Below, in pieces: positions 3,786 through 64,000 of a DNA stretch of 64,000 bases (within the stretch, counting starts at the first letter, position 1; the number at the start of each line of letters is the position of its first letter). A program made the position numbers and the translations under genes. The notes beneath the pieces were generated by a model. The model ran no database searches. It had not been told where the DNA came from and saw nothing but the letters and a program-made list of their open reading frames with translations. The DNA comes from an uncultured Candidatus Saccharibacteria bacterium. GTDB lineage: Bacteria > Patescibacteriota > Minisyncoccia > Phycocordibacterales > UBA2100. The DNA is taken from positions 13,982 through 77,981 of the forward strand of contig CAZQMS010000006.1 of assembly GCA_964594735.1 (NCBI GenBank), given 5' to 3'.

Positions 3786-4889
3786 ATGCCACCAGAAAAT
3801 TCACCCATGCAGAATCCCACCACAGTTGCGCAGCCTGTCGCTCAAGAGCACCCATCGCACCGTCCCCTTGTTATCGGGGTAGGGGTGTGCGCAGCGCTTC
3901 TCGGCCTCGCTATGCTCGCGTACCTGTGGCTCGGCGGGCGCGAGCCTGTGAGCGCAGGCCCGCTCCAGATAGGTATCGTGCAGAACGTACAGCTCCTCGA
4001 CGGAGCTGTCGAAGGGTTCAAACTTGGCATGACCGACCTTGGCTACGAGGAAGGCACCGATGTCGTCTATGAGTACTACAACGTCAACGGCAACGTCGAC
4101 GAAGCAAAGCGCGTCGCCCGGGAATTTGCAGAAGAGGGCAAAGACCTCATTCTCGCGGTCACGAGCACTGTCACGCCTGCGGTCTGGCAGACGCTCCAAG
4201 ATCTCGGCGTCGATATACCGATAGTCTTCACCAACGGCACGTCCTTCGACTACGACGGCTTTATCGACAGCTACCAATCATCGGGCAAAAACTTGACCGG
4301 CATCATCCCCGACGACTTCGACGTCACGATAAAGAAGCTCGAATTCCTCAAGCAGATTCAACCAGAGGCGAAACGCTTCGGCGTCTTCTACAGCAATGTC
4401 GGCCCCGGCGGCAAGCTCGTCGAGCGGCTGCAGGCGCAAAAAGATGCCCTGGGTCTCGATATGATTGCAGTCAAAATTGACTCTGTCGGTCCCGCAAGCC
4501 CGCCGGAACTTCAGGCGAAGGCGGATGCTGTGCAGAGGGGTGATATCGATGCCATCATGACGCTGCCGGATTCTGTGGTGAATTTCAGGGACAATCCGCT
4601 CATTCTCATCGCGCTCGGCAAGCGCATCGGGGCACCCGTGTACGCCCTCAATCACTCCATCGTGCAGCAGGGCGGCATTCTCGCGTACAACGAGGATCAC
4701 ATCGCGACAGGGAAGCAGGCTGCCGTGATGGCCAACAAAATACTCACCGGTACGCCCGCGATACAGATACCGATAGAGAAGTCCGGCAAGAACTTCCTCT
4801 CCGTAAACCTCAAAGCGGCCAAGGAGCTGGGGCTCACTGTCCCAGATTCGCTCATCTACAACGCCGACGAAGTGATACCAGCAGAATAG
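3786..4889 (+). CDS. ABC-type substrate-binding protein, PF04392-like, paralog 3
   Basis: QIGIVQNV...GYEEGTDVVYEYYNVNGN...IPIVFTNG...DVTIKKLEFLKQI; ends ...LIYNADEVIPAE as paralog 2 ends ...FNADQIIPAE. Confidence 0.65.
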   Translation: MPPENSPMQNPTTVAQPVAQEHPSHRPLVIGVGVCAALLGLAMLAYLWLGGREPVSAGPLQIGIVQNVQLLDGAVEGFKLGMTDLGYEEGTDVVYEYYNVNGNVDEAKRVAREFAEEGKDLILAVTSTVTPAVWQTLQDLGVDIPIVFTNGTSFDYDGFIDSYQSSGKNLTGIIPDDFDVTIKKLEFLKQIQPEAKRFGVFYSNVGPGGKLVERLQAQKDALGLDMIAVKIDSVGPASPPELQAKADAVQRGDIDAIMTLPDSVVNFRDNPLILIALGKRIGAPVYALNHSIVQQGGILAYNEDHIATGKQAAVMANKILTGTPAIQIPIEKSGKNFLSVNLKAAKELGLTVPDSLIYNADEVIPAE

Positions 4890-4903
4890 CCGCCAAACAA
4901 AGA

Positions 4904-4934
4904 AAAACGCCCCCATGGGGGGGCGTTTTTCTTT
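4904..4934. terminator. bidirectional rho-independent terminator hairpin
   Basis: AAAAACGCCCCCATGGGGGGGCGTTTTTC between convergent genes. Confidence 0.7.
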
Positions 4935-4947
4935 TAGACTGCGCACC

Positions 4948-5220
4948 TTACTGAGAATTGTGGGTCGTGCGCTTCGTGAAGTCGGAGAGCTTGGCTCCCG
5001 AGACGACGAAGAGATAAATAATCTCAAGGATGCCGAGCGTGTTGAGGAAGAGAAATGCGATGAACCACCACATATCCCCGCGCTTTGCGGCTCGCCAGAG
5101 CGCGAGGCCTTTCCACAGGAGCGACCACACCGCGACCAATAAAAAGGCAGAGATGACGAGCGGGATACCAAACCCCGCGCCCCACTCCGCACCCGGACCC
5201 CCGTAATTCATGTAATTCAT
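4948..5220 (-). CDS. small two-TM membrane protein, unknown function
   Basis: ORF with two hydrophobic helices; convergent with upstream gene across terminator. Confidence 0.4.
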   Translation of the reverse strand: MNYMNYGGPGAEWGAGFGIPLVISAFLLVAVWSLLWKGLALWRAAKRGDMWWFIAFLFLNTLGILEIIYLFVVSGAKLSDFTKRTTHNSQ

Positions 5221-5284
5221 ATGCGTACAGTATAGCGTGATTCTGGACCGCTCGCGTGGTATGGTAGAGCGCGTAGAAAGTATT

Positions 5285-5374
5285 GGAGAGGTGCCAGAGT
5301 GGTCGAATGGAGCACACTGCTAATGTGTTGAACGGGAAACCGTTCCGAGGGTTCGAATCCCTCCCTCTCCGCCA
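5285..5374 (+). tRNA. tRNA-Ser (anticodon GCU), type II with long variable arm, CCA encoded
   Basis: Manual fold: acceptor GGAGAGG/CCTCTCC, anticodon loop CTGCTAA, variable arm, T-loop GTTCGAATCC, ends GCCA; coordinates within 1-2 nt. Confidence 0.85.
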
Positions 5375-5406
5375 AGACAAAATCCCGCCGAACGGCGGTT
5401 ATTTTG
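5375..5406 (+). terminator. terminator hairpin after tRNA-Ser
   Basis: CCCGCCGAACGGCGG followed by TTATTTT. Confidence 0.55.
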
Positions 5407-5542
5407 TTGGCGGAGAGGAGAAGCGTGCCTGCGCACGCTTCGTGTGGGATTCGAACGGCGGAGCGATGCCGCAGAAGCTTGCGCGGCCGCGAGCCGGTGC
5501 CTAACCCGAGTTGCGTGACGACGCGACGAGAGGTGAAGGAGT

Positions 5543-5559
5543 ATCCCTCCCTCTCCGCA
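5543..5559 (+). repeat. direct partial copy (16-17 nt) of tRNA-Ser 3' end (att-like scar)
   Basis: ATCCCTCCCTCTCCGC identical to tRNA 3' end. Confidence 0.6.
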
Positions 5560-5622
5560 CGAAGTTTTGAGTATCGGAAGACAGGAGTGCTCGATTTTTC
5601 AGATGTAAGGTAAGATATTTAC

Positions 5623-5898
5623 ATGAAGACTTTCGAGAAAAAATGGCTTTCGGCTGGCGCTATAGTATTAGCGGTTTTGTTTATTTGGTTCGCTATCCCT
5701 AAGGAAAAAGACGGGACTCTAGACTTAGGAGACCGTTTATCGGAATGTAAGGTGCATGTGAGTGTAGAACCTGGATCCTCAGACACTTACTTCAAAACTT
5801 TCTACTGCAGTTATTTTACAGACGTGGTCAGATGCTACTCTCCTCGTTACCAAGGGGGTATGTGTACGAAAGTTTATCAATACGACCGGGAACCTTAG
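5623..5898 (+). CDS. small secreted/membrane-anchored protein, Cys-containing, island-borne
   Basis: N-terminal hydrophobic helix; low-GC ORF. Confidence 0.45.
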   Translation: MKTFEKKWLSAGAIVLAVLFIWFAIPKEKDGTLDLGDRLSECKVHVSVEPGSSDTYFKTFYCSYFTDVVRCYSPRYQGGMCTKVYQYDREP

Positions 5899-5901
5899 TT
5901 T

Positions 5902-6216
5902 ATGACTGAAACCCATTTGACGCTCCTCATTGCAATATCCGTACCTTTCCTGGCAGTCGTTGTTAGCTGGATTGCACTCATGGTGGCAATGCACAAAACC
6001 ACTGGTGAGCTAAAGCACTGGTTGACGCCTGACAATCTTGTGAAAGGTATTGCCATTATATTTGTTATTACTGCAGCACTCGCTCTCGGTGTTCTACAAA
6101 TCCTAGAGGGAGACGTAATTGCTACAATCCTCAGTGGCATTATTGGCTATACTTTGGGCACTTCCTTCCTACCTCTGAAAACTAACCCCGACCCGAGTGC
6201 CTCAAAAAACTCGTAG
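5902..6216 (+). CDS. small polytopic membrane protein, island-borne
   Basis: 3 predicted TM helices; start 4 nt after previous stop. Confidence 0.45.
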   Translation: MTETHLTLLIAISVPFLAVVVSWIALMVAMHKTTGELKHWLTPDNLVKGIAIIFVITAALALGVLQILEGDVIATILSGIIGYTLGTSFLPLKTNPDPSASKNS

Positions 6217-6354
6217 AAAAGTCGCTGAAATACCCTCACGGTACCTCACCGCTCTGGTACTGAACCCGAGTAGCCCGCATAATATTAGACAAGGAAAAGT
6301 CGCTTTCTGACGTGCTTAGCCCCAACACCGAAATTAGTAGTTAATTTTCGAGCT

Positions 6355-6696
6355 ATGTACGTGGTGCTAACAAAAAAAGAGAAAGAGGAAGAGGTGCTGA
6401 GAAGGGGGCGGGAGCGCCAGCAGCGCGAGATACTTGAACGCGAACAGATAACACAGCAGCGACAAACGGAAGCGACCCTTGCCTCTTCGAAACAAGCGTT
6501 CGCGGTGATAGCAATAGTGCTTTTTTATGGCTTCGTCGCGTACCTATTTGTTGCAGGGTTTCTCGGGGGGCAGAAAGATTACTCCGTTAAGGTCAACTGC
6601 ACGACGGATGCCTGTCATGAATACTATGGTCAGAAACTGTACGAGCAGGGGCAGGACAACTCCAGACCAGACTATCTTGATGTTCAGGGTCTTTAA
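6355..6696 (+). CDS. hypothetical membrane protein with charged N-terminus, island-borne
   Basis: KE-rich N-terminus then a TM helix. Confidence 0.4.
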   Translation: MYVVLTKKEKEEEVLRRGRERQQREILEREQITQQRQTEATLASSKQAFAVIAIVLFYGFVAYLFVAGFLGGQKDYSVKVNCTTDACHEYYGQKLYEQGQDNSRPDYLDVQGL

Positions 6697-6724
6697 TCTT
6701 TTTATCAACTTATTCGATAACTAT

Positions 6725-7093
6725 ATGAACAAATATCTTAAGTGGAGTCTGATTCTTGCCGCTGTTTACGCTGTGCTTGCCGTTGCTACAGGGTTTCTTG
6801 TAGGCATAGAGGGGACATTGTCGGAATTCGTAGTTAACAACGTCGGCTCTTGTTTCTCGTCCGGCGAATTTTCCTCGCTCTGCTACTTCGCGGTTTACAG
6901 TGGAGGTGGCGCGATTTTGTCTGTCGCTTTCTACGGCATGATTCTCGCCGCGCTAGCCTCAACCATCACTGGTCTTATCGCCGTGTACCAATCTCTCAAG
7001 TCTCACGCTCGTTGGTGGCATGTGATTACGATTTACGGGGCACTTAACGCGCTGCTCGTGTTCGCTACAGCATTCGCAATGTTGACGACCTAA
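6725..7093 (+). CDS. hypothetical polytopic membrane protein, island-borne (internal ATG of ORF 6527..7093 chosen)
   Basis: MNKYLKWSLILAAVYAVLAV... multiple TM helices; avoids overlap with the previous gene. Confidence 0.4.
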   Translation: MNKYLKWSLILAAVYAVLAVATGFLVGIEGTLSEFVVNNVGSCFSSGEFSSLCYFAVYSGGGAILSVAFYGMILAALASTITGLIAVYQSLKSHARWWHVITIYGALNALLVFATAFAMLTT

Positions 7094-7364
7094 AATGAAC
7101 GGCGAGTTAGCGGAAAAGTATCCACTATCTGACGAGCATATCGCTGAGCTTGCGGCGTTCTTTGCGCTGTTAGCGAAGTTCGATATGGAGGACAAACAAA
7201 GAGAGATGTCTCGACAACATGCTGACCATTGAGGCATGCCGTGCTCTCATACCGGACGGCGACAAACTTTCGGATGAGGAGATAGTTAAAATCCGCGAAT
7301 CACTATATGGCTTCGCGAAGCTAGCCCTTGACGTATATTTCAAGGAAAAAGGGACGGAGAAAAA

Positions 7365-8138
7365 CTAGGCCTGCTGCGCGTATGCGTCTTTGTCGTACAC
7401 AACCTCAGTTATTTCTTCTCTCGCTTTTAGTACTGCTATTACCTTTCCAGCTGCAAAATAATTCTCGAAATCTCTTGCGTGTACAAAAATGGGTGGATAA
7501 TCCTCTGATGACTCAGATACCAAGACGACTTGATGTTCTAAATCATTTAAGAGCAGTCTTTTTATATTTGCTAGTCCGTTGATGATAGATAAAACATAAT
7601 CTCCACTACTGAAGTCTTTATCCTCTCCGTCAACTATTACATAATCGCCATCTTGTATTGTCTTGCCAGCAATGCTCGCCCTATTCATTGAGTTGCCCAC
7701 AGCCTTTACCGCAAACAATGAGCTGAGATTCGTGTCTCTTTTAACTAAACGGGGTGATATTTGTAGCACGCTCTGTTCCACACTTCCGGCGAGGACAGTA
7801 GCTGGCCCACAGTTGGCAAGCCCATACAGTGGAATTGAGACCAACAATTTCTTGTCCACCGTAGAGCGAGTCTGCGTATCACTTATACGACCAGAATCGC
7901 GGATTTTATCCAAAAGATTCAGCTTTTGTAGGTGATATTTAATCTTCTGCGGGTGGGGTTCTCCTACAAGGCGACCCACTTCACGCAGGCCAAGACCCTC
8001 TAACCCTCTTTTTTGAGCGAGTTCCAGAAGCTTCCTCTGTATCGGATGCACACCCACACCATATCCGTACGAGTTCAGGGTGTCAACGGGCATGTGTTGA
8101 CAATTTCTGCCGTTGACGGGGATTTCCTCCATTGACAT
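7365..8138 (-). CDS. LexA/CI-like transcriptional repressor with S24 peptidase domain
   Basis: N-terminal LexA-like wHTH (HPIQRKLLELAQKRG...KIKYHLQKL); C-terminal Ser-Lys dyad region AVGNSMN...IKRLLL; about 45% GC. Confidence 0.65.
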   Translation of the reverse strand: MSMEEIPVNGRNCQHMPVDTLNSYGYGVGVHPIQRKLLELAQKRGLEGLGLREVGRLVGEPHPQKIKYHLQKLNLLDKIRDSGRISDTQTRSTVDKKLLVSIPLYGLANCGPATVLAGSVEQSVLQISPRLVKRDTNLSSLFAVKAVGNSMNRASIAGKTIQDGDYVIVDGEDKDFSSGDYVLSIINGLANIKRLLLNDLEHQVVLVSESSEDYPPIFVHARDFENYFAAGKVIAVLKAREEITEVVYDKDAYAQQA

Positions 8139-8514
8139 TCCAACAGCGGGGTCTACACTTCACACAGCTCTCACACAAAACGAAAGCGACGGCCACTCGC
8201 AAAAGTTAGACCGCCGCATTCGTTCATCATCGAATAGGAGCGTAGCGCTTTCTATTCTCTGTGCGAGAGCAGGGCTTACGCCCCGACTCTGTACATGCAA
8301 GATAGCATCGTGCGTGCCGATTACCAAGCGCTACGATAACGTGATACGACGTATGTCTCAATACAGACGGCGGCGCGGGTACGACACTTGGCACTTTTGT
8401 TCCAACTGCTCCAACTATCCGCACTACGACTTCGATTCGCGCGACACCAAGCCCTCAAGCGGAGAGTTCTGCAACGAGTGCCTCGCGAAGCAGAAGGCGG
8501 GTACCTGCTACTAA
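8113..8514 (+). CDS. possible Cys-rich zinc-ribbon protein (real start probably internal)
   Basis: C-terminal CSNCSN...CNEC pairs; weak. Confidence 0.2.
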   Translation: MTGISSIDIPTAGSTLHTALTQNESDGHSQKLDRRIRSSSNRSVALSILCARAGLTPRLCTCKIASCVPITKRYDNVIRRMSQYRRRRGYDTWHFCSNCSNYPHYDFDSRDTKPSSGEFCNECLAKQKAGTCY

Positions 8515-9012
8515 CAATCGAAGCCCGAGGGACGGGGCGTGGTGTTGAAACCGCATCGCGCCCCCAACTCAGGGTTCTAAAATCATTACTTACTATCAAC
8601 TAACACGTTATGTCTCATCGAAAAACAAGTTCACGCGCTGCTACCGCAGCCTCTAAGGTTCTGAGAGACCCCACATCTACCAGAGCTGAGAAATCTGCTG
8701 CTGCAAGTGCGCTCTCGCAGCGAGCTACAAACGATAGGCGACGCCATAGATAGTATGGTTATCGTCGCAAGAGATGCCGCTCCTCGTTGGGTCAGGAACT
8801 CACTTCGAGCGTTCCTGGAGGGCGAACAGAATCTTACTTGGATTGCGGGGATTTTGAGGGGTCAGCCCGCTGACTATATACGTTCATTGGTACACTCGAT
8901 GCAAGGTGCGCCGGAACGCAAGGCTGAACTGAATCAGTGGCTGAACGAAATCCGGTAGGGTGGGCCGAGTCCCTCTCATGTCGCCTCGCGCATCGAGGCG
9001 CATACTTCTCAT

Positions 9013-9786
9013 ATGGAACAACACATAAAAGACGCTCATTTATTGAGACTAAGGAAAATATTTCGAGAGAACTTTCTCAGAGAGCTATCGGACGAACAGG
9101 CGTCCGAGTATCTGGATAAGATGTACACGCAGACCCGCGCTGAACTTGCGCGGCTACCGAACTTTGGCGCAAAGGCCACCGAGAAGTATCTATCCGGCAA
9201 TCTCGAAATCGTGTTCTCGCCCAACGCAATAAATGCCGAGGTGCTGCGTGTCGTCAACGAGATAGGCATTGAAGCTCTTGAGGCTTCGTCCAAATACAAG
9301 CGTATGGCCGAAATGGTGGACGCTTCATGCCTCGCTTTGGCACTTAAGAAAGCGGGCAAAGGCGAGTGGGTCATAAAAGGACAAGACGCACCGGACATTC
9401 TTCTGGTGCAGCCTGACCCTGAACACACGATGGGCAAGCCTTTTAGGGCTATCTCACTCGAAATCATGCAGATACCAGAGTTCGCAAAGGAAAAGTTTGG
9501 CGCGGACGTGGAGGCTGACGCGGCACAGTTCATTCAGGACAAGAAGTACACAAAGCGGTACGAGGGCATACCGCACCTGCTCGTGCATCTCAATTTCGAC
9601 CACATCGGCTTCAAGACGAAGCGACTAAGCGAGAAGTTGTGCGAGGAAAAGAACAGCCCATTCCGACAGATTTGGATAAGAGTTAACGCCGACCCTGTGT
9701 CTCAGGTGATGAAAATGGTTCTCGTCTATCCCGTGTACATGGAGTTTGAGTTCGACTTTCTAAATGACCGCCACCTGATGTTTTAG
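9013..9786 (+). CDS. hypothetical protein, island-borne
   Basis: 257-aa ORF with no recognisable motif; low GC. Confidence 0.45.
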   Translation: MEQHIKDAHLLRLRKIFRENFLRELSDEQASEYLDKMYTQTRAELARLPNFGAKATEKYLSGNLEIVFSPNAINAEVLRVVNEIGIEALEASSKYKRMAEMVDASCLALALKKAGKGEWVIKGQDAPDILLVQPDPEHTMGKPFRAISLEIMQIPEFAKEKFGADVEADAAQFIQDKKYTKRYEGIPHLLVHLNFDHIGFKTKRLSEKLCEEKNSPFRQIWIRVNADPVSQVMKMVLVYPVYMEFEFDFLNDRHLMF

Positions 9787-9861
9787 ACGAGCCAGCTGTT
9801 CCATCTCGTGGATAAGGATTCCAACCGCCTTATATAGTCGGGCAGACGAACAAAAGCCGCC

Positions 9862-9885
9862 CTAAGGCGGCCTTTGCTACGCTCC
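9862..9885. terminator. terminator hairpin inside island
   Basis: AAAAGCCGCCCTAAGGCGGCCTTT. Confidence 0.5.
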
Positions 9886-10085
9886 ATCACTTCTCCCTGT
9901 ACTGCTCTTTGCTAGTAATGCCCCATTGACAACGGGTTGCCCAAAAAGTGATGAAATGTGATTAATTTTGATTTCTGGTAAGTACGTTTGCGAACTTCGC
10001 CTTTTGCCGATAATCCGCACACTCTCTAGCTTTTTCCTTGTTTTGCTCGACGTTTCGACATACCATCAGAAATTATCCGAGAGTA

Positions 10086-10107
10086 TTCGAATCCCTCCCT
10101 CTCCGCA
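10086..10107 (+). repeat. direct repeat (21 nt) of tRNA-Ser T-arm/acceptor 3' end; putative attR-like island boundary
   Basis: TTCGAATCCCTCCCTCTCCGC matches tRNA-Ser 5350-5371. Confidence 0.65.
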
Positions 10108-10110
10108 AAT

Positions 10111-10758
10111 CTATGCCCTTGCTAAAGCGATGAGCGATACGGTAGCTCCTGCGCGGCGGAGCGGTGTCGCGGCGTTGGCGAGCGTAGCGCCGGTGGTGGT
10201 CACGTCGTCAATGAGATAGACGTGCGTTTTTGATACATCGACGCCTTCGCGTAGTGAAAATGCTCCGGCGACGTTGGAGAGGCGCTCGGAGCGATGCAGC
10301 TTTGTCTGGGGTTTTGTCGCGCGCGTGCGCACGAGTATGTCGGTCGCAAGGCGAGCGCGCGTGCCGTCGCGGAAGTCGTGCGGGAGTCGTTGCAAAACGG
10401 ACTCTATCTGGTTATACCCGCGTTCACGGCGACGCGATGTGTGGAGCGGGAGGGGTAGAATCAGGATTATCTTAGTCGAAAAAGCGGCATCTCCCGCGAT
10501 TTCTTCGGTGAGGTATTCGGCGACGAGTGTTGCGAGCAGGCCGGCGGCCTTTCCGCCGCCATCGTACTTGAGTGATTGGATAAGGTCTCGCGCAGCCTCT
10601 GTCTTGTAGTCCATGAGGGTCGTGATGCGCGCACCGAGGAGTTCGTGCGACGTAGGGCAGAGAGGGACGTGTTCCACTTCCAGAGTGGAGAGGCGTGCAG
10701 TGCGTGCCTTGGGCGGCACGATGGCGTCGAGCACGGCTCTGAGGGCGCGCAAAACCAT
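10111..10758 (-). CDS. comFC: ComFC-family competence protein (phosphoribosyltransferase fold)
   Basis: C-terminal PRT motif VYLIDDVTTTGATL, RGYNQ motif, ComFC-like tail. Confidence 0.7.
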   Translation of the reverse strand: MVLRALRAVLDAIVPPKARTARLSTLEVEHVPLCPTSHELLGARITTLMDYKTEAARDLIQSLKYDGGGKAAGLLATLVAEYLTEEIAGDAAFSTKIILILPLPLHTSRRRERGYNQIESVLQRLPHDFRDGTRARLATDILVRTRATKPQTKLHRSERLSNVAGAFSLREGVDVSKTHVYLIDDVTTTGATLANAATPLRRAGATVSLIALARA

Positions 10759-26618: not shown

Positions 26619-26691
26619 AGCGGGGTGGAGCAGGAGTAGCTCGCCAGGCTCATAACCTGGAGGTCGCGGGTGCAATTCCCGCCCCCGCAAC
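26619..26691 (+). tRNA. tRNA-Met, initiator-like (CAU), no encoded CCA
   Basis: Near-identity to bacterial tRNA-fMet core (GCGGGGTGGAGCAG...GCTCATAACC...CCCCCGCAA), mismatched 1:72 pair; coordinates within 2 nt. Confidence 0.8.
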
Positions 26692-56964: not shown

Positions 56965-57101
56965 AGGTTTCTTGGTGAGGGTAAAAAATACTTCTCGACC
57001 TTTTCATTAAAATCCTACCACGTCCTAAAAGCCCCAGTGTCCCCAAAAGGATGGCGAGGTGCATATCTCTTTCGCGACGTACTGTGCTCGTACCCTGTGG
57101 A

Positions 57102-57305
57102 ATCTATTCTAGTGTTTTGCCCTCCTTCGCATAAAGCTACGGACGGGCAGGCAAAAGACTGTAATAAGAAATCGGGGGATGGGATAGGGGTGAGGTGGGG
57201 GAATGGATGGATGGGGGTGGATGGGGAGGAGAATGGAGGGTGGCTGGGGAGACGAATGGGGGCGGCATCATGCCGAGTTCCCCAAAATCAAGATCCGTGG
57301 GATTC
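57102..57305 (+). repeat. repeat module copy A: hairpin (TAGTGTTTTGCC...GGCAAAAGACTG), purine-rich tract, junction motif GTTCCCCAAAATCAAGATCCGTGGGA
   Basis: Aligns along about 150 nt with copy B at 58347-58497. Confidence 0.7.
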
Positions 57306-57436
57306 TTGGTTGGGAGGGCTTTTACATGAGTGCCCGTCTGGGGGGCAGGTCTCGTATAACCGTGAAAAATAGCGTTTTTTCCACAGTTTTCACGATTATG
57401 ATTGCAATTAGCGTGAAAGCATGCTATACTTGAACT

Positions 57437-58330
57437 ATGGCTCGTACTCCGCACGTTTTTGGACAAATAAACTCGCTTCGAGAGCGCTACTACCGTGCAT
57501 TGCCGGGCAAAGAGTCGCTTATTCGAACACTCAACGAGGCGGAGATCCCCGAGCATGTCTACAACTCAAACGCGATCGAAAATAGTACTCTCACACTCGA
57601 AGAGACCGAAAAAATTCTTCTCCAGATCGACCTCGATCGCTTTGTAAGCGAGCGTGAGCTCTTTGAGGCAAAAAATCTTGCCCGCGTGATGGACTATATA
57701 GACAAAAAAGCCAAAGAAGTCGAGCTCTCCTTGCCGCTCATACTTTTTCTCCACCAAACACTCATAGCCAACATCCGCAACGAGATTGCCGGCCGCTTTC
57801 GCAAAGAAGGGGAGTGGGTGCGCGTGGGTGCGCACATCGGTGCGGATCCAAAAGACATAGAGCGCCTACTTACCGACATGGTTGCCACGTATCATGCAGA
57901 CGCCAGTGGTCATGTTGTTTCTCGCATAGCGCGCCTCCATCTTGTTTTCGAGGGTATCCATCCATTTTGCGACGGCAATGGTCGCATTGGCCGGGTGCTC
58001 AACAACTTCGCGCTTCTGCGCGAAGGATACGTGCCGATCAATATTGCCTTCGTAAACCGCGCGCGCTACTACGACGCGTTTAAAGAGTATGAGCAGAAAG
58101 GATCCACCAAGATAATGGAGGAATTGATCGGCCGAGCACTCACCAACAGTTACCACAAGCGCCTCGCGTACCTCGAGGGCAAAAATATTGTTACGCTCAA
58201 AGATTACGCAAAAAAGCACAAACTCTCCTACACCAACCTGCTCAACAAAGCGGGGCGCCAGACCATCCCTGCGTTTATGGAAAAAGGCGTCTGGAAAATC
58301 GCGGACGAGCCCACCCAGTTCGAAAAATGA
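57437..58330 (+). CDS. fic: Fic-family AMPylase (class II, intrinsic inhibitory motif)
   Basis: HPFCDGNGRIGR Fic motif; N-terminal SNAIEN matches (S/T)xxxE(G/N) inhibitory helix. Confidence 0.85.
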   Translation: MARTPHVFGQINSLRERYYRALPGKESLIRTLNEAEIPEHVYNSNAIENSTLTLEETEKILLQIDLDRFVSERELFEAKNLARVMDYIDKKAKEVELSLPLILFLHQTLIANIRNEIAGRFRKEGEWVRVGAHIGADPKDIERLLTDMVATYHADASGHVVSRIARLHLVFEGIHPFCDGNGRIGRVLNNFALLREGYVPINIAFVNRARYYDAFKEYEQKGSTKIMEELIGRALTNSYHKRLAYLEGKNIVTLKDYAKKHKLSYTNLLNKAGRQTIPAFMEKGVWKIADEPTQFEK

Positions 58331-58346
58331 AGATTTTGTGGGTCCG

Positions 58347-58497
58347 GATTCTATTTCAGTGTTTTGCCTGACCGGCCAGGGCAAAAGACTGTAATGAGGA
58401 TTGGGGGAATTGGGGAAAATTGGAAAAAAGGATTCGGAATGGGTGAGGACGGCTCGGCACCATGCCCAGTTCCCCAAAATGAAGAATTGTGGGAGCA
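58347..58497 (+). repeat. repeat module copy B: hairpin (CAGTGTTTTGCC...GGCAAAAGACTG), purine-rich tract, junction motif GTTCCCCAAAATGAAGAATTGTGGGA
   Basis: Homologous to copy A; bracketed by junction-motif copies at 58324-58341 and 58469-58494. Confidence 0.7.
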
Positions 58498-58504
58498 TTA
58501 GACC

Positions 58505-59047
58505 ATGTTTGGCGTGAGTGAAATGTTGCCGTTGTTTTTGTGGGCGCTAACGATCGCCGTCTTCGTCGCGGCTGTCGTGATGGCCGTGATACTTTTCATC
58601 GTGCGCCGCCGGGAGACGCCGCTCAGCTACACACGAAAGGAATCCATATTTGATATACACACTGAGCGCGAACTTTTTGACACATTGCAGGAGTTGTACG
58701 GAGACCGGTACTTCGTTTTCCCTCAAGTCCATTACAGTCATCTCTTGCGGCCGAGTAAAGAACTTTCGTATCGCGACAGGCTTGTTCTGAGAAACAAGGT
58801 AGACAGGAAATCTGCAGACTTCGTACTGTGCGAAAAGAGTGACGTAAGCGTCAGGCTTGTTATCGAGCTGGACGGCAGCAGCCATGACCGACCAGACAGG
58901 CAGGAGCGAGACACATTCATAAATTCGATTGCAAACACTTCCAATTTGAACCTGCTTCGTATGCCGACGAATCGCATGGATAGAGCGTCAGTACTAGAGC
59001 AAGTAGACGCCAAGTTGGCGCAGATTCCCGCAGGTTCCCCAAAATGA
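58505..59047 (+). CDS. DUF2726-like (NERD/PD-(D/E)xK-fold) protein with N-terminal TM
   Basis: YFVFPQVHYSHLL...KSADFVLCEKSD..VRLVIELDGSSH pattern. Confidence 0.65.
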   Translation: MFGVSEMLPLFLWALTIAVFVAAVVMAVILFIVRRRETPLSYTRKESIFDIHTERELFDTLQELYGDRYFVFPQVHYSHLLRPSKELSYRDRLVLRNKVDRKSADFVLCEKSDVSVRLVIELDGSSHDRPDRQERDTFINSIANTSNLNLLRMPTNRMDRASVLEQVDAKLAQIPAGSPK

Positions 59048-59060
59048 AGATTCGTGGGAT
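59033..59060 (+). repeat. junction motif copy C (GGTTCCCCAAAATGAAGATTCGTGGGAT) overlapping DUF2726-like stop codon
   Basis: TGA stop lies inside the motif. Confidence 0.65.
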
Positions 59061-59071
59061 GATTTTCACGC

Positions 59072-59794
59072 ATGCACAAATTGTCGCGCGCGACGATAGA
59101 GAAGTTGGGATATTACGTCTACATCCTCTCTGATCCGCGCACGAACAAGGCTTTTTACGTCGGCAAGGGTAGGGGCAATCGCATCAATTCGCACCTGCTC
59201 GGTGCTCTCGAGGAAAATACCAAAGAGACTCTGAAGATCCGCACTATTCGCGAGATTCAGGCTGCCGGCCTGGAAGTCGGTCTCACCATCTTGCGCCACG
59301 GCCTTTCTGAAAGGGAGGCGTTTGAAGTAGAAAGTGCGATTATCGATGTCTTTGGGTTGGAGAATCTTACCAACATCGTCACGGGTCACTATGCGCATGT
59401 GCGCGGGAAAATGAGCGTGCGTGATATCGAGATTGAATACCAAGCCAAACCGGCCGTCTTCGACGAGCCTGTTTTGCTTATCCGAATCAACAGACTATAC
59501 AGGCACGACATGCCCGCTGAAGAATTGTACGAAGCAACACGCAAGTATTGGCGAATCCGATTGCGAGATGATATGCCTCGTGTCGTCTGCGCAGTGTATG
59601 CGGGCATTATTCGCGAAGTCTACCTTGCGCAGACGTGGATACGCCCCAACGGCTTGAAGGGAAAAATTGAAGGCCGCATCGCTTTCGAGGGCGCGATCGC
59701 GCCGCCAGGAATCCGCGAGAAGTATCTGAACAAATCCGTCGTGCACGTTCTCAAGCAGGGGAGCCAGAATCCTATTAAGTACGTCGGGCGCTGA
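59072..59794 (+). CDS. GIY-YIG nuclease-domain protein with C-terminal extension
   Basis: GYYVYILSD...KAFYVGKGRG GIY-YIG motifs; about 240 aa. Confidence 0.7.
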   Translation: MHKLSRATIEKLGYYVYILSDPRTNKAFYVGKGRGNRINSHLLGALEENTKETLKIRTIREIQAAGLEVGLTILRHGLSEREAFEVESAIIDVFGLENLTNIVTGHYAHVRGKMSVRDIEIEYQAKPAVFDEPVLLIRINRLYRHDMPAEELYEATRKYWRIRLRDDMPRVVCAVYAGIIREVYLAQTWIRPNGLKGKIEGRIAFEGAIAPPGIREKYLNKSVVHVLKQGSQNPIKYVGR

Positions 59795-59888
59795 CTCCCA
59801 ACGGCTCAGACCCCCCCCGTCTGAGTCGTGGGATGGTGCCGCGCCTCCCATTTCCCAAAGCTCGGATTTGTGATCTAATCCTCCCGTT

Positions 59889-60773
59889 ATGAAGGAGGTG
59901 CCGAAATATCACGAAACGTTCATACCTATCCTTAAAACCCTTGCAGAGATGGGTGATGTCTCCACGGCTGCCTTGAAAGTCCTGGTCGCAAAGAAGTTTT
60001 ATGGGGATCTGCCCAAGGACCTGCTCGAACAAAGGACGAAGTCGGGACATATCCTTATTCTCAATAGGATCGGCTGGGGTAAGGCGTACCTGAAACAGGC
60101 GGGGATGATAGAGCAACCGGAGCGAGCGCTTGTGCGCATCACTGACAAAGGCCGAGAAGTTCTCAGAAAGGGCAAGCTCTCGCTCAAAGAGATCAAGTCA
60201 GACCCGGAGTTTCAGGCGCATCAAAAGACAGAGAGTGGCACCAAAGTGTCTCATGACCTCGACGAGACAGCTACGCCGCAGGATCAGATAGATGCCGGAT
60301 TCAATAAGATAGAGAATCAGGTCAAGACAGAGTTGCTCGCGAAGCTCAAGACGATAGACCCATTTTACTTTCAGAAAGTTATCCTGACGCTCCTCGAAAA
60401 GATGGGATATGGCGACTTGGTGGAGACACCGAAAACAGGGGACGGCGGTATCGACGGCATAATCACACAGGACAAGCTTGGGCTCGATAAGATCTACATC
60501 CAGGCGAAGCGCTTTGCAGACAGCAAGGTGCGTGAGTCGGACATTCGCGATTTCATCGGTGCGATGAGCCGCGATACCAACAAAGGCATCTTCGTCACGA
60601 CGTCAAAATTTGACCAAAAAGCACTTAGCAAGGCCAAAGACGCGAGTCACAAGATCATCACGGTCGATGGCGACCAGCTCGCCGACCTCATGTACACGTA
60701 CGGCGTCGGCGTCCAGGTGACCGACACCTACGAGGTCAAACAACTCGACGAGGACTTCTTCGAGCAGGCCTAG
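59889..60773 (+). CDS. mrr: Mrr-type restriction endonuclease (Mrr_N wHTH plus Mrr_cat)
   Basis: C-terminal GDGGIDGIITQD...IYIQAKRF PD-(D/E)xK; N-terminal winged helix. Confidence 0.8.
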   Translation: MKEVPKYHETFIPILKTLAEMGDVSTAALKVLVAKKFYGDLPKDLLEQRTKSGHILILNRIGWGKAYLKQAGMIEQPERALVRITDKGREVLRKGKLSLKEIKSDPEFQAHQKTESGTKVSHDLDETATPQDQIDAGFNKIENQVKTELLAKLKTIDPFYFQKVILTLLEKMGYGDLVETPKTGDGGIDGIITQDKLGLDKIYIQAKRFADSKVRESDIRDFIGAMSRDTNKGIFVTTSKFDQKALSKAKDASHKIITVDGDQLADLMYTYGVGVQVTDTYEVKQLDEDFFEQA

Positions 60774-60827
60774 TGCGCCGCAAGGCCAGCGCGGCGCGCA
60801 CTGGGTTATACTGGATCAAAATGCTTT

Positions 60828-62579
60828 ATGGTCAAGAAAATTGATTACGAAAAATGGTCGAAAGAGGAGTTGATAAAGGAGATCCAGCGAATCAAGGAAA
60901 CGACCTACGGCCTTGTGTGGCATAGGGATTTACCCGAGGAGAAAATCGACGTCCTCATAAATCCGGATGCTAGGACACCGAGCGAGATGTTCCCCAACGA
61001 AATGGCGGGCAAGCCTTTCCCCGTGCTGAAAGAGGTGAAATCAAAGGCGGTAGAAACCGACGCAAAAAAGCCAGTAAATATTCTCATTGAGGGCGATAAC
61101 TATCACTCGCTCGCCGTGCTCAACTTTACGCACCAAGAAGCGATTGATGTGATTTACATTGACCCGCCCTACAATACTGGAAACAATGACTTTATTTATA
61201 ACGATTTACAAGCACGCGTCGTCCAAAAAGATGATCCGTATCGGCACAGCAAGTGGCTTGCTTTCATGGAAAAGAGGTTGAAGCTTTCAAAAGGGCTACT
61301 CAAGAAAACCGGCGTGATTTTCATAAGTATTGATGACAACGAACAAGCTCCTCTAAAAATGCTCTGCGATGAAATTTTCGGAGAGAAAAATTTTATAGGA
61401 ATGTTTAAGTGGAATAGAGTCGCGAAAGCACCAAGTCTTTCGTATTCTATGAGAACGAAATATGAGTATATTCTCGCGTATTATAAAGAAACACGAATAG
61501 AGTTGTTTGGTAAAAGTTCATACAATACACAAGGACCTTTATGGCACTTGCCGAATAAAAGAGTCCAACTAAACTTTCCGGCTGGCAGTTTGAAAGTGAA
61601 GCAGACATTTAAGAAGGGTGACTACGGCGGATCGTACAAGGTGGAATTGCTTGACGATATTATTGAAGAAGGTGGTTTCAACAAAAATGACGTGAGAATC
61701 CTTGCCCATTCAGCGTGGGGTCAAGCAAGAATTAATCAATACTTAAAAGACGGGCTTACTTTTGAAATAAAGAAGACTCCGGCAACCGTATATACGACCC
61801 TAAACAGCGAGGGTAATTTCATTGCTCCCTCTGATTTAATAACGAAGGAAGAGTGTGGCGTTGAGACAAATACAGACGCAAGTGATGCATTGAAAGCCAT
61901 GGGGATTCCATTTGATGCTCCGAAGCCCGTGTCTCTAATAAAGTATCTGGCAAACATGGCCACGCACGACAACAAGTCGGCAGTTATACTCGACTTTTTT
62001 GCCGGTTCTGGGACTACGGGACATGCTGTTTTGGAATTGAACAAAGAGGATGGCGGCAATCGAAAGTTTATTCTGTGTACAAATAATGAGGAGCTTGATA
62101 ACAACGGAGGCAAAATCAAGCATAGGATTTCTACAGACATATGCTACCCGCGCGTGTCAAAAGTCATCAAAGGATACAAAACTACAGACGGGCAAAAAAT
62201 CGATGGACTAGCCGGCAATCTCAAATACTACACAACCGCATTTGTCGAAGCCGAGCCGTCGGACAGGAATAAACGCAAACTGGTGGACGAGTCGACCGAG
62301 ATGCTTTGCATCAAGGAGGCGGCGTTTGAATTGGTAAAGGAGGGCAAGGACTTCAAGATTTTCAAAAATACTGACAAGTATCTCGGCATCGTATTCCACG
62401 AGGACGCCATCGATTCGTACAAAGAGGCCATCAAGAAAATGGACGGGCATTTCAACACCTACGTCTTTTCGCTCGGCGACGAGCCTCACGAAAAAGAATT
62501 TGCTGATGTAAAAAGCAAAGTAACGCTCTGCGCTATCCCCGAAGTGATACTGAAAGTGTATCGGGAGATATTCAAATAA
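60828..62579 (+). CDS. mod: Type III restriction-modification methyltransferase (Mod, N6-adenine)
   Basis: Motif IV DPPY (IYIDPPYNTGNNDF) before motif I FFAGSGTTGHAV; 583 aa; about 42% GC. Confidence 0.85.
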   Translation: MVKKIDYEKWSKEELIKEIQRIKETTYGLVWHRDLPEEKIDVLINPDARTPSEMFPNEMAGKPFPVLKEVKSKAVETDAKKPVNILIEGDNYHSLAVLNFTHQEAIDVIYIDPPYNTGNNDFIYNDLQARVVQKDDPYRHSKWLAFMEKRLKLSKGLLKKTGVIFISIDDNEQAPLKMLCDEIFGEKNFIGMFKWNRVAKAPSLSYSMRTKYEYILAYYKETRIELFGKSSYNTQGPLWHLPNKRVQLNFPAGSLKVKQTFKKGDYGGSYKVELLDDIIEEGGFNKNDVRILAHSAWGQARINQYLKDGLTFEIKKTPATVYTTLNSEGNFIAPSDLITKEECGVETNTDASDALKAMGIPFDAPKPVSLIKYLANMATHDNKSAVILDFFAGSGTTGHAVLELNKEDGGNRKFILCTNNEELDNNGGKIKHRISTDICYPRVSKVIKGYKTTDGQKIDGLAGNLKYYTTAFVEAEPSDRNKRKLVDESTEMLCIKEAAFELVKEGKDFKIFKNTDKYLGIVFHEDAIDSYKEAIKKMDGHFNTYVFSLGDEPHEKEFADVKSKVTLCAIPEVILKVYREIFK

Positions 62580-62583
62580 AGAT

Positions 62584-64000
62584 ATGGCATGGATTCAATT
62601 CAAGGACTACCAAGAGACAGCCGTCGTTGACCTAAAACGCGAGTCAAACAAATTGCTCGATGCGGATGGCAACAAGGTGCTGATTTTCAAAGCGCCCACC
62701 GGCTCGGGCAAGACGTTGATGGTGGCCGAGTTTCTGAAGCGGCTTATCGACTCGCGTATCGATGGCAAGCATTTCTCTTTCGTATGGATAGCCGTCAATA
62801 AACTACACGACCAGAGCCGAAATAATCTAAAGAAATACTACGACCAGTACGGCGTGGGGCTAAAATGCTCCTATTTCTCCGATCTGCAAGAACGGAAAAT
62901 CGCCGAGAATGAAATCTTGTTTCTCAACTGGGCCAGTATCAACAAGGGTGAGAAAGGCATCATCACTCGCGCGAACGAGCGCGATAACAATCTAACGTCG
63001 GTCGTTCAACGCACGAAAGACGAGGGACGCATCGTCGTGCTCATCATCGATGAAAGTCATCATACAGCAAAGGGCGAAGAATCGTTGAAGGTTATTGAAG
63101 GAATCGCTCCAAAACTAACAATTGAAGTGTCCGCAACGCCTCAACTGAGAAGTCTCAAGGGTGTTGAAGTCGAACTGAAAGATGTAAGAAACGAGGGCAT
63201 GATAAAGAAAGAAATCGTCATAAACCCCGGCTTCGAGCACTATGTCATCGATAAGAAAAAGAACGATAAAACGGCAGACGAACTCGTGCTCGAAAGCGCG
63301 CTCAAGCGTCGTGCGGCGCTAAAAAAGAAACTCGAAGCCGAGGGGTCAAGTGTAAACCCACTACTGCTGATACAAATCCCCGATGCAAAAGCTGGACTTG
63401 CCGACAAGAAGGATGATGTAGTAAAAACGCTTGGTAAGTACGGCATAACGACCGAAGGCGGCAGACTCGCCATATACCTTTCCGAAAAAGACAATAAAAT
63501 AAACCTTGAGAATATTGAGAAGGACGAGAACGAAGTCGAGGTGATGATTTTCAAGCAAGCAATCGCGCTCGGCTGGGATTGTCCACGTGCGTCGCTTCTC
63601 GTCTTGTTCCGGCAGTGGCGGGAAGAAAACATGACATTTTCTATCCAAACGCTCGGACGCATTATGCGTATGCCGGAGCAGAAACACTACGACGACAACG
63701 AATTGAATCTCGGCTATGTTTTTACGAGTCTGCCGGATATCAAGGTCGCCGAGGATATTTCCCGCGAGTACATCACGGTATACGAGGGCAAACGGCGGGA
63801 CGACTACAAGGATATAAACCTCGAATCATGGCACTCAAAGCGGTTCCGTGAGGAAACGCGGCTCTCGCCGGATTTTGATCCTATTTTCCTCGATGCGGCA
63901 AAAGCGCTCAAAACAATGTCGCGCATAAAAAAAGACCACAGTATCGTCGACACGAAGCTCGTAGCGAGCGGCCGTATCTACGACATCGATCAGGAAGCAA
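62584..64000 (+). CDS. res: Type III restriction enzyme Res subunit (helicase domain), 3' end truncated by window
   Basis: Walker A KAPTGSGKT, DEAH-like IIDESHH; starts 5 nt after mod stop; not in ORF track because there is no stop codon in the window. Confidence 0.8.
   Translation, partial: MAWIQFKDYQETAVVDLKRESNKLLDADGNKVLIFKAPTGSGKTLMVAEFLKRLIDSRIDGKHFSFVWIAVNKLHDQSRNNLKKYYDQYGVGLKCSYFSDLQERKIAENEILFLNWASINKGEKGIITRANERDNNLTSVVQRTKDEGRIVVLIIDESHHTAKGEESLKVIEGIAPKLTIEVSATPQLRSLKGVEVELKDVRNEGMIKKEIVINPGFEHYVIDKKKNDKTADELVLESALKRRAALKKKLEAEGSSVNPLLLIQIPDAKAGLADKKDDVVKTLGKYGITTEGGRLAIYLSEKDNKINLENIEKDENEVEVMIFKQAIALGWDCPRASLLVLFRQWREENMTFSIQTLGRIMRMPEQKHYDDNELNLGYVFTSLPDIKVAEDISREYITVYEGKRRDDYKDINLESWHSKRFREETRLSPDFDPIFLDAAKALKTMSRIKKDHSIVDTKLVASGRIYDIDQEA

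Follow-up and report, generated by a model that had tools for sequence, protein, structure and literature searches.

An integrase-less island at tRNA-Ser(GCU) as a probable degenerate member of a family of small integrative elements in Candidate Phyla Radiation bacteria

A stretch of 64,000 nucleotides (nt) of contig CAZQMS010000006.1 (positions 13,982 to 77,981; hereafter the window) from an uncultured Candidatus Saccharibacteria bacterium carries an island at 5375–10106, between a tRNA-Ser(GCU) gene and a ComF-like gene. Coordinates are those of the window, and related comparison contigs are designated by L numbers. The island likely belongs, as a degenerate copy, to a family of small integrative islands that target tRNA genes in the Candidate Phyla Radiation (CPR)/Paceibacterota; it has lost its integrase and is probably immobile. 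An earlier note, made from the sequence alone, had proposed here a decayed integrative element or prophage remnant that lost its integrase. The first of these readings is supported by L034, which has the same tRNA end, an integrase module and the backbone genes of the island, and by comparison with L033 and L028.

Insertion site and neighbourhood of the island

The apparent integration target is the tRNA-Ser(GCU) gene at 5285–5374 (plus strand; ARAGORN; Rfam tRNA, 56.8 bits), the left attachment (att) site attL lying within its 3' end. The 3'-terminal 21 nt of the tRNA, TTCGAATCCCTCCCTCTCCGC, occur exactly twice in 64 kb, on the plus strand, as the attL core at 5352–5372 and the attR core at 10086–10106, and the ComF-like stop codon lies 4 nt past the distal copy. 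No further match was found in the window at up to three mismatches, nor any in 100 shuffles, so that 0 matches are expected by chance; the repeated tRNA 3' end described in the earlier note is exact at both borders. Aligned in register, the two copies show 90% identity over 29 nt (5347–5375 versus 10081–10109). The same 21-nt core serves L028 and L034 and is also found in L027. A degenerate third att copy, the exact 16-mer ATCCCTCCCTCTCCGC at 5544–5559 (plus strand), likewise agrees with the earlier note. On its left it is flanked by GGAGTA, which is similar to GAGAGTA on the arm side of attR, TTCGAA being deleted (sequences read directly). This suggests that it is the trace of a second integration, of accretion or of aberrant recombination. 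Between the tRNA and this copy, a GC-rich (0.63) spacer with a terminator-like hairpin at 5385–5398 occupies 5375–5543, where relatives have the integrase 3' end; extended homology of the 186-bp spacer to either flank or to the integrase 3' end was not found. The island has a lower GC content (0.491 for 5375–10085; 0.42 to 0.54 in 500-nt steps) than the remaining window (0.555), as the earlier note had stated, although its value of about 0.60 for the flanks was too high. The GC content of family relatives is 0.43–0.47.

An independent public assembly, Logan contig SRR15237806_542194 (L001; 4809 bp), is 100% identical to 5348–10156. It ends within the tRNA T-arm and 50 nt past attR and is uninformative on the empty site; its left break fits the shared tRNA sequence, and its right break might reflect strain variation in the ComF-like gene.

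The PilM-like gene downstream of the island has relatives in metagenome-assembled genomes (MAGs) of CPR/Paceibacterota, the closest being that of a sister species, L002 (89% identical). Homology between L002 and the window stops at 5234 and restarts at 10115, in the ComF-like stop codon. Between these shared flanks, L002 has a different insert of 7.2 kb, which lacks all of the island genes and contains a large serine recombinase, an inverted tRNA-Ser, an XRE regulator, membrane proteins and a type II restriction-modification pair (a C5 methylase and an EcoO109I-family enzyme). The distant relative L006 keeps the order tRNA-Ser (plus), ComF (minus) and PilM (plus), with about 1 kb from tRNA-Ser to ComF. 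Because L002 carries a different insert and L006 keeps the gene order, the tRNA-Ser/ComF junction is an old neighbourhood and an insertion hotspot, and this comparison, which the earlier note had suggested, agrees with an insertion in the window. The borders of the island fall at the repeat. For the two largest cargo products, an S24 regulator and a 257-amino-acid (aa) protein, the best non-self relatives are only 56% and 54% identical, respectively, and both proteins are outside the core shared with L002.

In L002 itself, nested inverted repeats surround the large serine recombinase gene (L002:1866–6842). One is of 232 nt (100%; 1866–2097 versus 4853–5084) and the other of 134 nt (99%; 5076–5209 versus 6628–6761). 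Compared with the flanks, the tRNA-Ser is inverted; the recombinase open reading frame (ORF) runs into the tRNA 3' end. Either the element here is invertible or rearranged, or the arrangement is an artefact of MAG assembly.

Related elements and their common layout

The family was reached by blastn of the island against plasmids, by a search with a pattern derived from the resulting alignment, and by a search with the 137-aa membrane protein of the island, through which L033 and L034 were added. The pattern search returned seven metagenome loci, of which five were genuine and two (L026 and L029) were chance matches within coding sequence; the viral contig L023 likewise matched the pattern only, inside coding sequence, and was set aside.

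L034 starts with 29 nt identical to the 3' end of the window tRNA-Ser. It encodes on one strand a tyrosine integrase (PF00589), an excisionase homologue and an HTH_36 protein, and on the other strand two small ORFs followed by homologues of the 137-, 45- and 49-aa proteins of the island (70%, 80% and 76% identical, respectively) and by a GmrSD/HEPN-like cargo gene interrupted by the contig end. The DNA of L033 is 87% identical to the window at 6717–7240 and 92% identical at 9852–10085, and L033 ends exactly at the att core. L033 has an integrase fragment at its opposite end and, as cargo between backbone and arm, a complete Lamassu system (LmuA, E = 1e-112; LmuB, E = 1e-151; LmuC, E = 1e-47).

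L030 is located at a tRNA-Met, with a 21-nt repeat at 101–121 and 7566–7586. It has a 409-aa integrase reading into the tRNA, an excisionase (TIGR01764, 37 bits versus a cut-off of 28.8), the backbone genes and the conserved arm, and its cargo consists of a reverse transcriptase of the defence-associated (DRT) type (UG17, E = 3e-35), a Shedu SduA (E = 3e-67) and a 195-aa protein. L028, at tRNA-Ser(CGA), has the same 21-nt core as the window at 761–781 and 5562–5582, together with the membrane backbone gene, an 87% identical arm and a Ppl-like PHP-ATPase as cargo. It is a second copy without an integrase, and the 66 nt after its tRNA align to the integrase 3' end of L034 with a score of 66 versus a shuffle maximum of 29. 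The att core of L027 is the tRNA-Ser 3' end, and the integrases of L027 and L030 share 59% identity.

In the window, a tRNA-Met at 26619–26691 has a 3' end (26671–26691) that matches the L030 att core at 20 of 21 positions. A second copy of this sequence was not found in the window, and the site is apparently an unoccupied attachment site for a sibling element.

These elements share a layout of tRNA/attL, integrase, excisionase, helix-turn-helix (HTH) gene, 137/45/49-aa backbone, variable cargo, an arm of about 240 bp and attR, within about 5–7.5 kb in intact relatives. The window matches this layout from 6717 to 10106. Its backbone genes, all on the plus strand, encode a 137-aa membrane protein (6680–7093; 3–4 transmembrane segments), a 45-aa protein (7095–7232) and a 49-aa protein (7219–7368), in the same order as in the relatives. 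The tblastn identities are 55–84% for the 137-aa protein (L033, L030, L034 and L028), 48–86% for the 45-aa protein (L033, 86%; L034, 80%; L030, 48%) and 67–76% for the 49-aa protein (L034, 76%; L030, 67%). Just six homologues of the 137-aa protein were found among 5.8 billion proteins.

Three further plus-strand ORFs on the tRNA side are unique to the window copy: a 91-aa ORF with one N-terminal transmembrane segment (5623–5898), a 104-aa membrane ORF (5902–6216) and a 113-aa ORF with one transmembrane segment (6355–6696). By hydropathy, the 91-, 104-, 113- and 137-aa ORFs have 1–3 transmembrane segments each, and the small membrane proteins listed in the earlier note are thus present, as is its 257-aa ORF.

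Absence of an integrase

As the earlier note had stated, the island has no recognizable integrase. None of its ORFs gave a recombinase match in Pfam, PHROGs, NCBIfam or PADLOC, and tblastn of the 64 kb with the family integrase and excisionase, a serine recombinase and an unrelated tyrosine integrase gave no match. The HTH protein of the family had no match within the 64 kb either. No integrase remnant was detected in the 328 nt past the tRNA (alignment score of 19 versus a shuffle mean of 17.8). Elsewhere in the window, minus-strand ORFs near a tRNA-Gln and at other positions proved to be ordinary enzymes, though not every ORF was scanned with Pfam. The 257-aa protein was also considered as a novel recombinase and rejected; its homologues occur in unrelated contexts without att features, and intact relatives use an ordinary tyrosine integrase.

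The conserved att arm

Between the 257-aa gene and attR lies a conserved att arm (P' arm; 9852–10085, minus strand), whose core of about 115 nt at 9851–9966 is shared with Proteobacteria, where it lies on alphaproteobacterial plasmids or ICE-like contigs. The arm is 92% identical in L033, 87% in L028 and 76–81% in Bradyrhizobium plasmids and L027; in blastn against plasmids, 9851–9966 is 76% identical to unannotated DNA of Bradyrhizobium symbiosis plasmids. An intrinsic terminator, with the hairpin GCCGCC-loop-GGCGGC and a U-run (9849–9873, minus strand; RNAfold), closes the arm, and this hairpin is kept in L033, L022 and L031. The integrase 3' end, an att core and the arm directly adjoin one another, as they would in attP, on L027, on L024 and on L031, a Bradyrhizobium plasmid. 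The presence of this module in CPR bacteria and Alphaproteobacteria implies cross-phylum transfer of the recombination module.

The arm contains a bipartite site, GGGCAACC-N3-TGTCAAT, at 9925–9942 (minus strand), about 145–160 nt inside the distal att core. The site is present once in the window and twice in L024, L027, L030 and L031, with one copy in the last codons of the integrase (FGQPxxNQW) and the second in the arm across the att core; L034 shows the integrase-side copy only, as its contig stops before the arm. The second half of the site is TGTCAAT in CPR bacteria and GGGCAAC in Proteobacteria, and both copies change together. Such paired-site behaviour is typical of arm-type integrase-binding sites, and the bipartite copies are candidate sites of this type, their behaviour being what such sites show. 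On that reading, the window keeps one arm site (9925–9942) and lost the integrase-side one.

On the Bradyrhizobium symbiosis plasmids, the arm element occupies L031:2601–3119, L022:3978–4147 and L032:3010–3111 and is unannotated in the PLSDB tables. In L031, it adjoins a truncated integrase 3' end (family residues 300–376) and a tRNA-like T-arm fragment and is located downstream of IS21 genes.

Two other identities of the arm were rejected. The arm precedes the reverse transcriptase in L030, and a retron or DRT non-coding RNA was therefore considered; this was dismissed because no reverse transcriptase accompanies the arm in the window, L028, L033, L027 or Bradyrhizobium, and because its distance from an att core is constant. 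A small protein gene (47-aa ORF, 9877–10020, minus strand) is disfavoured by indels of 1, 2 and 4 nt relative to the Bradyrhizobium copy and by differences from L028 at about 11 of 47 residues at 87% DNA identity.

It is also possible, though we hold it to be the weaker interpretation, that the arm (9851–9966 core, minus strand) is an undescribed structured RNA that controls the integrase, besides or instead of being a protein-binding arm. In phage lambda, sib retroregulates int. Under a sib-like model, the integrase transcript of the excised circle would cross attP into a 14-bp closing helix (arms at 9943–9956 and 9882–9895) and the terminator, and integration would separate them. The hypothesis is reasonable because the arm lies across attP from the integrase, and all attP-like or circularly joined arrangements (L027, L024, L031 and L030) show integrase, att core and element in collinear order. 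The fold z-scores are -4.7 for the window arm and -5.9. The helix is 87.9% paired over ten sequences versus 53–69% for slid-partner controls, and its mismatch cells comprise 24 of the G-U type versus 3 of the A-C type, an asymmetry that fits an RNA on the integrase-collinear strand and not a symmetric DNA site. The terminator hairpin comes next in the window, L033, L022 and L031, and the nucleotide identity of the arm between CPR bacteria and Proteobacteria (76–81%) exceeds the amino-acid identity of the integrases (59–65%). However, covariation is weak, with three double changes, a number reached by 101 of 500 shuffles; the ten sequences are few and mutually related; and the inner hairpins differ between the CPR and proteobacterial versions. 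Furthermore, the best-conserved stretch is a same-sense duplicate of integrase 3' sequence, both copies of which co-vary between lineages, and a search of 9845–9993 against Rfam 15 returned only Phe_leader (26 bits, E = 0.3; gathering score, 55). The likeness to lambda sib lies in a structured element with a terminator across attP from the int 3' end, collinear with it only when excised; unlike sib, the present element is known from sequence, and it holds the same-sense integrase 3' duplicate resembling arm-type sites. If the RNA reading is true, the window arm would be an orphaned copy of such an RNA.

Cargo of the window copy

The cargo slot of the window extends over about 7369–9851. On its minus strand lies a gene for an S24 (LexA/CI/UmuD-type) regulator (7365–8138), which is predicted to be self-cleaving; the opposite-strand S24 repressor of the earlier note was confirmed by PF00717 above the curated cut-off (E = 1.4e-12, 47.8 bits versus 23.3). 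In PHROGs, it matches phrog_4 (E = 3e-16) and the CI-like phrog_6201. Its homologues are of about 215–220 aa and cover 81–86% of the ORF, and its true start is probably about 30–40 codons past the first ATG. The translation has a Ser in GNSM, a Lys in NIKRL, a UmuD-like Cys-Gly (NCGP) as candidate cleavage site and an N-terminal region of the size of a DNA-binding domain. It thus resembles the LexA/CI/UmuD family in its S24 domain, Ser/Lys pair, candidate cleavage site and position divergent from a small operon, and differs from it in falling below the cut-off of the NCBIfam LexA equivalog TIGR00498 (42.7 bits versus 110.95), in having no match to PF01726 and in sitting in a mobile cargo slot. 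The gene is divergent from the plus-strand small ORFs and the 257-aa gene, with promoter-like hexamers facing both ways (8086–8058, minus strand; 8132–8159, plus strand).

Homologues of the S24 protein with identities of up to 56% are common in Paceibacterota. Two independent contexts have such a homologue immediately upstream of restriction-modification genes, pointing to a controller-like or SOS-linked function of this S24 clade in CPR bacteria. In L018:4963–9273, a homologue (52%) is co-oriented with two D12 methylases and an AlwI-type enzyme, and in L019/L020:8001–10818, another (52%) is co-oriented with an N6/N4 methylase and an Eco57I-type enzyme. Elsewhere in L018 (1697–3927 and 9440–12518), there are a diversity-generating-retroelement-like pair (bAvd and RVT_1), a tyrosine integrase, a Zot-like gene and small ORFs; the Zot-like region may represent a CPR prophage of the inovirus type.

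On the plus strand follow a 53-aa zinc-ribbon-like ORF (CxxC...CxxC; 8355–8514, from an inner Met of a 133-aa ORF) and, at 8610–8958, two small overlapping ORFs of 47 aa (8610–8753) and 83 aa (8707–8958), whose coding status is uncertain. The 53-, 47- and 83-aa ORFs had no family match in profile searches. The last gene encodes the 257-aa protein (9013–9786), which belongs to a small uncharacterized family with no Pfam model (10 clusters and 123 representatives, respectively, in two databases). Its AlphaFold model (predicted local distance difference test score of 86.5) has an alpha-beta-beta-beta-alpha-beta core, and E100, P127-D128, E150 and K178 are nearly invariant across 70 diverse homologues. 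The predicted fold and these residues are compatible with a PD-(D/E)xK-like nuclease with a displaced lysine. The homologues occur alone in varied contexts, beside DUF4238 or between a glycosyltransferase gene and cysS. The latter arrangement, found with a 44% identical homologue in several samples (L011–L013; for example, L011:2174–2947), has the look of one gene inserted among housekeeping genes.

Four relatives carry bona fide defence systems in this slot, and the window cargo therefore most likely has a defence or conflict function; judged by its position, it would be a damage- or infection-responsive module. The S24 regulator and the nuclease-like protein could form an uncatalogued defence module. 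Alternatively, the two may be unrelated cargo genes and not one system.

Outside the island, a second low-GC stretch of the window (57000–63000; 0.445–0.51) contains a run of defence-type genes, namely Fic (57437–58330), DUF2726 (58505–59047), a GIY-YIG protein (59072–59794), Mrr (59889–60773) and an N6/N4 DNA methylase (60828–62579).

Discussion

Considering the island and its relatives together, we propose the following scenario. Intact members of the family may integrate through an Xer-like tyrosine integrase, attP carrying a copy of the 21-nt tRNA 3' end, so that integration would rebuild the tRNA and leave a 21-nt repeat at the far end. The window copy would have retained the backbone, the cargo, the arm and both att cores and would have lost the integrase-excisionase-HTH module together with the integrase-side bipartite site. 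Given the loss of one arm site and the missing integrase, we argue that the island is unable to excise. Most likely it has become a permanent part of the chromosome, a domesticated cargo island located at the tRNA-Ser/ComF-like recombination hotspot, with an S24 repressor divergent from a small operon that ends in the gene for a putative PD-(D/E)xK nuclease.

The main competitor of this scenario, to which we give a small probability, is a non-autonomous element that is still mobile (a cis-mobilizable element, CIME, or 'hitcher') and is moved in trans by the integrase of a sibling, such as one residing at a different tRNA within the same cell; the lack of an integrase would then be its natural state. 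Two of the six members, the window copy and L028, have no integrase and nevertheless keep exact 21-nt repeats and arms that are 87–92% identical; the family uses at least two tRNA targets; and the match of the window tRNA-Met to the L030 core means that sibling elements could live in the genome. However, L028 retains a decaying integrase 3' remnant, which marks the loss as secondary and not as a design feature; the closest relative, L033, still has an integrase; the window has no integrase-side bipartite site, which every two-arm locus has; and the family integrase was not found in the 64 kb. Far less probable is a remnant of a prophage or phage satellite, in which a CI-like repressor would have survived the deletion of structural and replication genes. 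The match of the S24 protein to phage repressor families, a 40% identical S24 homologue on one IMG/VR contig and the location of the L018 homologue near Zot-like inovirus genes fit such an origin. No other island ORF matched PHROGs, no DNA similarity to 50,697 phage records was found by blastn, the 257-aa family has no relatives on viral contigs, and the intact relatives have no capsid, terminase or replication genes. The earlier note's suggestion of a prophage remnant is thus not supported, and its proposed search for phage or structural functions yielded the S24 protein alone in PHROGs. That there was no insertion, the repeat having arisen by chance or from a tRNA and the genes being native, can practically be dismissed. 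The GC contrast is modest (0.49 versus 0.555) and the window has another equally low region, at 57–63 kb, but 0 chance matches are expected for the 21-mer, the sister species has none of the island genes at the same site, and homologous elements with the same ends occur at other tRNAs of other genomes.

Several points weigh against the proposal of a degenerate family member with a defence cargo. The family is built on only five relatives, mostly short contigs, and the integrase search covered 64 kb, so that a family integrase may lie elsewhere in the genome. The tRNA side holds the GC-rich spacer, the third att copy and three unique genes for small membrane proteins; because of this unique content and the lack of a detectable integrase remnant, a simple deletion does not account for the window copy, and its history needs at least two events. 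With regard to the cargo, the nuclease assignment is one of topology and conserved residues only, and beta-3 reads E-x-M and not E-x-K. Foldseek searches of the 257-aa protein against PDB and BFVD returned nothing significant, and there was no significant profile match. The ten island ORFs matched 0 families of PADLOC-DB 2.0 at E <= 0.1; PADLOC matches the cargo of the relatives strongly. Furthermore, in none of the other contexts examined is the S24 gene found together with the 257-aa gene.

The degenerate island resembles known tRNA islands with tyrosine integrases (P4-type and Xer-like) in its insertion at a tRNA 3' end, the rebuilt tRNA and distal 21-nt repeat, the integrase and excisionase beside the tRNA in intact relatives, a composition that departs from the host, and a content that varies between sister genomes. 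It differs from them in that the window copy has no integrase or excisionase, that the elements are unusually small (about 5–7.5 kb) and occur in CPR hosts, that their three-gene backbone is of unassigned role and that their recombination module is also found in Proteobacteria. The CIMEs of the ICESt1/ICESt3 family of Streptococcus thermophilus are att-flanked elements without recombination and transfer modules that form tandem arrays by accretion. The window island is likewise flanked by att cores and has no recombination genes, and the degenerate third att copy at 186 bp from the tRNA points to accretion in tandem or to a deletion. Unlike CIMEs, it is missing one set of arm sites, which makes even cis-mobilization doubtful, and we know of no partner integrative and conjugative element or conjugation context in this lineage. 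Pipolins are small integrative elements that act as defence platforms (PMC11551731). The family shares with them a conserved framework and one hypervariable slot with defence cargo in relatives, and differs from them in having no PolB, replication or transfer module and an unrelated backbone; the window cargo matches no catalogued system.

No description of this element family was found in the literature searched, and the relatives define an undescribed family of small CPR integrative elements with an exchangeable defence slot. What is new here is the family, the shared recombination module and the possible arm RNA, whereas an integrase-less tRNA island is of a known kind; the window itself represents the more ordinary outcome, a stranded island without an integrase. 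CPR/Patescibacteria have tiny genomes with few recognized mobile elements or defence systems. A CPR survey reported that defence genes are enriched in the horizontally acquired fraction and did not describe their vehicles (PMC12455944). The present locus and its relatives provide one concrete vehicle, in which a fixed three-gene backbone accompanies a single slot that exchanges defence systems, namely Lamassu, DRT plus Shedu, Ppl-like and GmrSD/HEPN-like systems. They also supply a rule for finding defence candidates in CPR genomes, namely the content between the 49-aa gene and the conserved arm, and this rule marks the S24 and 257-aa cargo of the window as a candidate.

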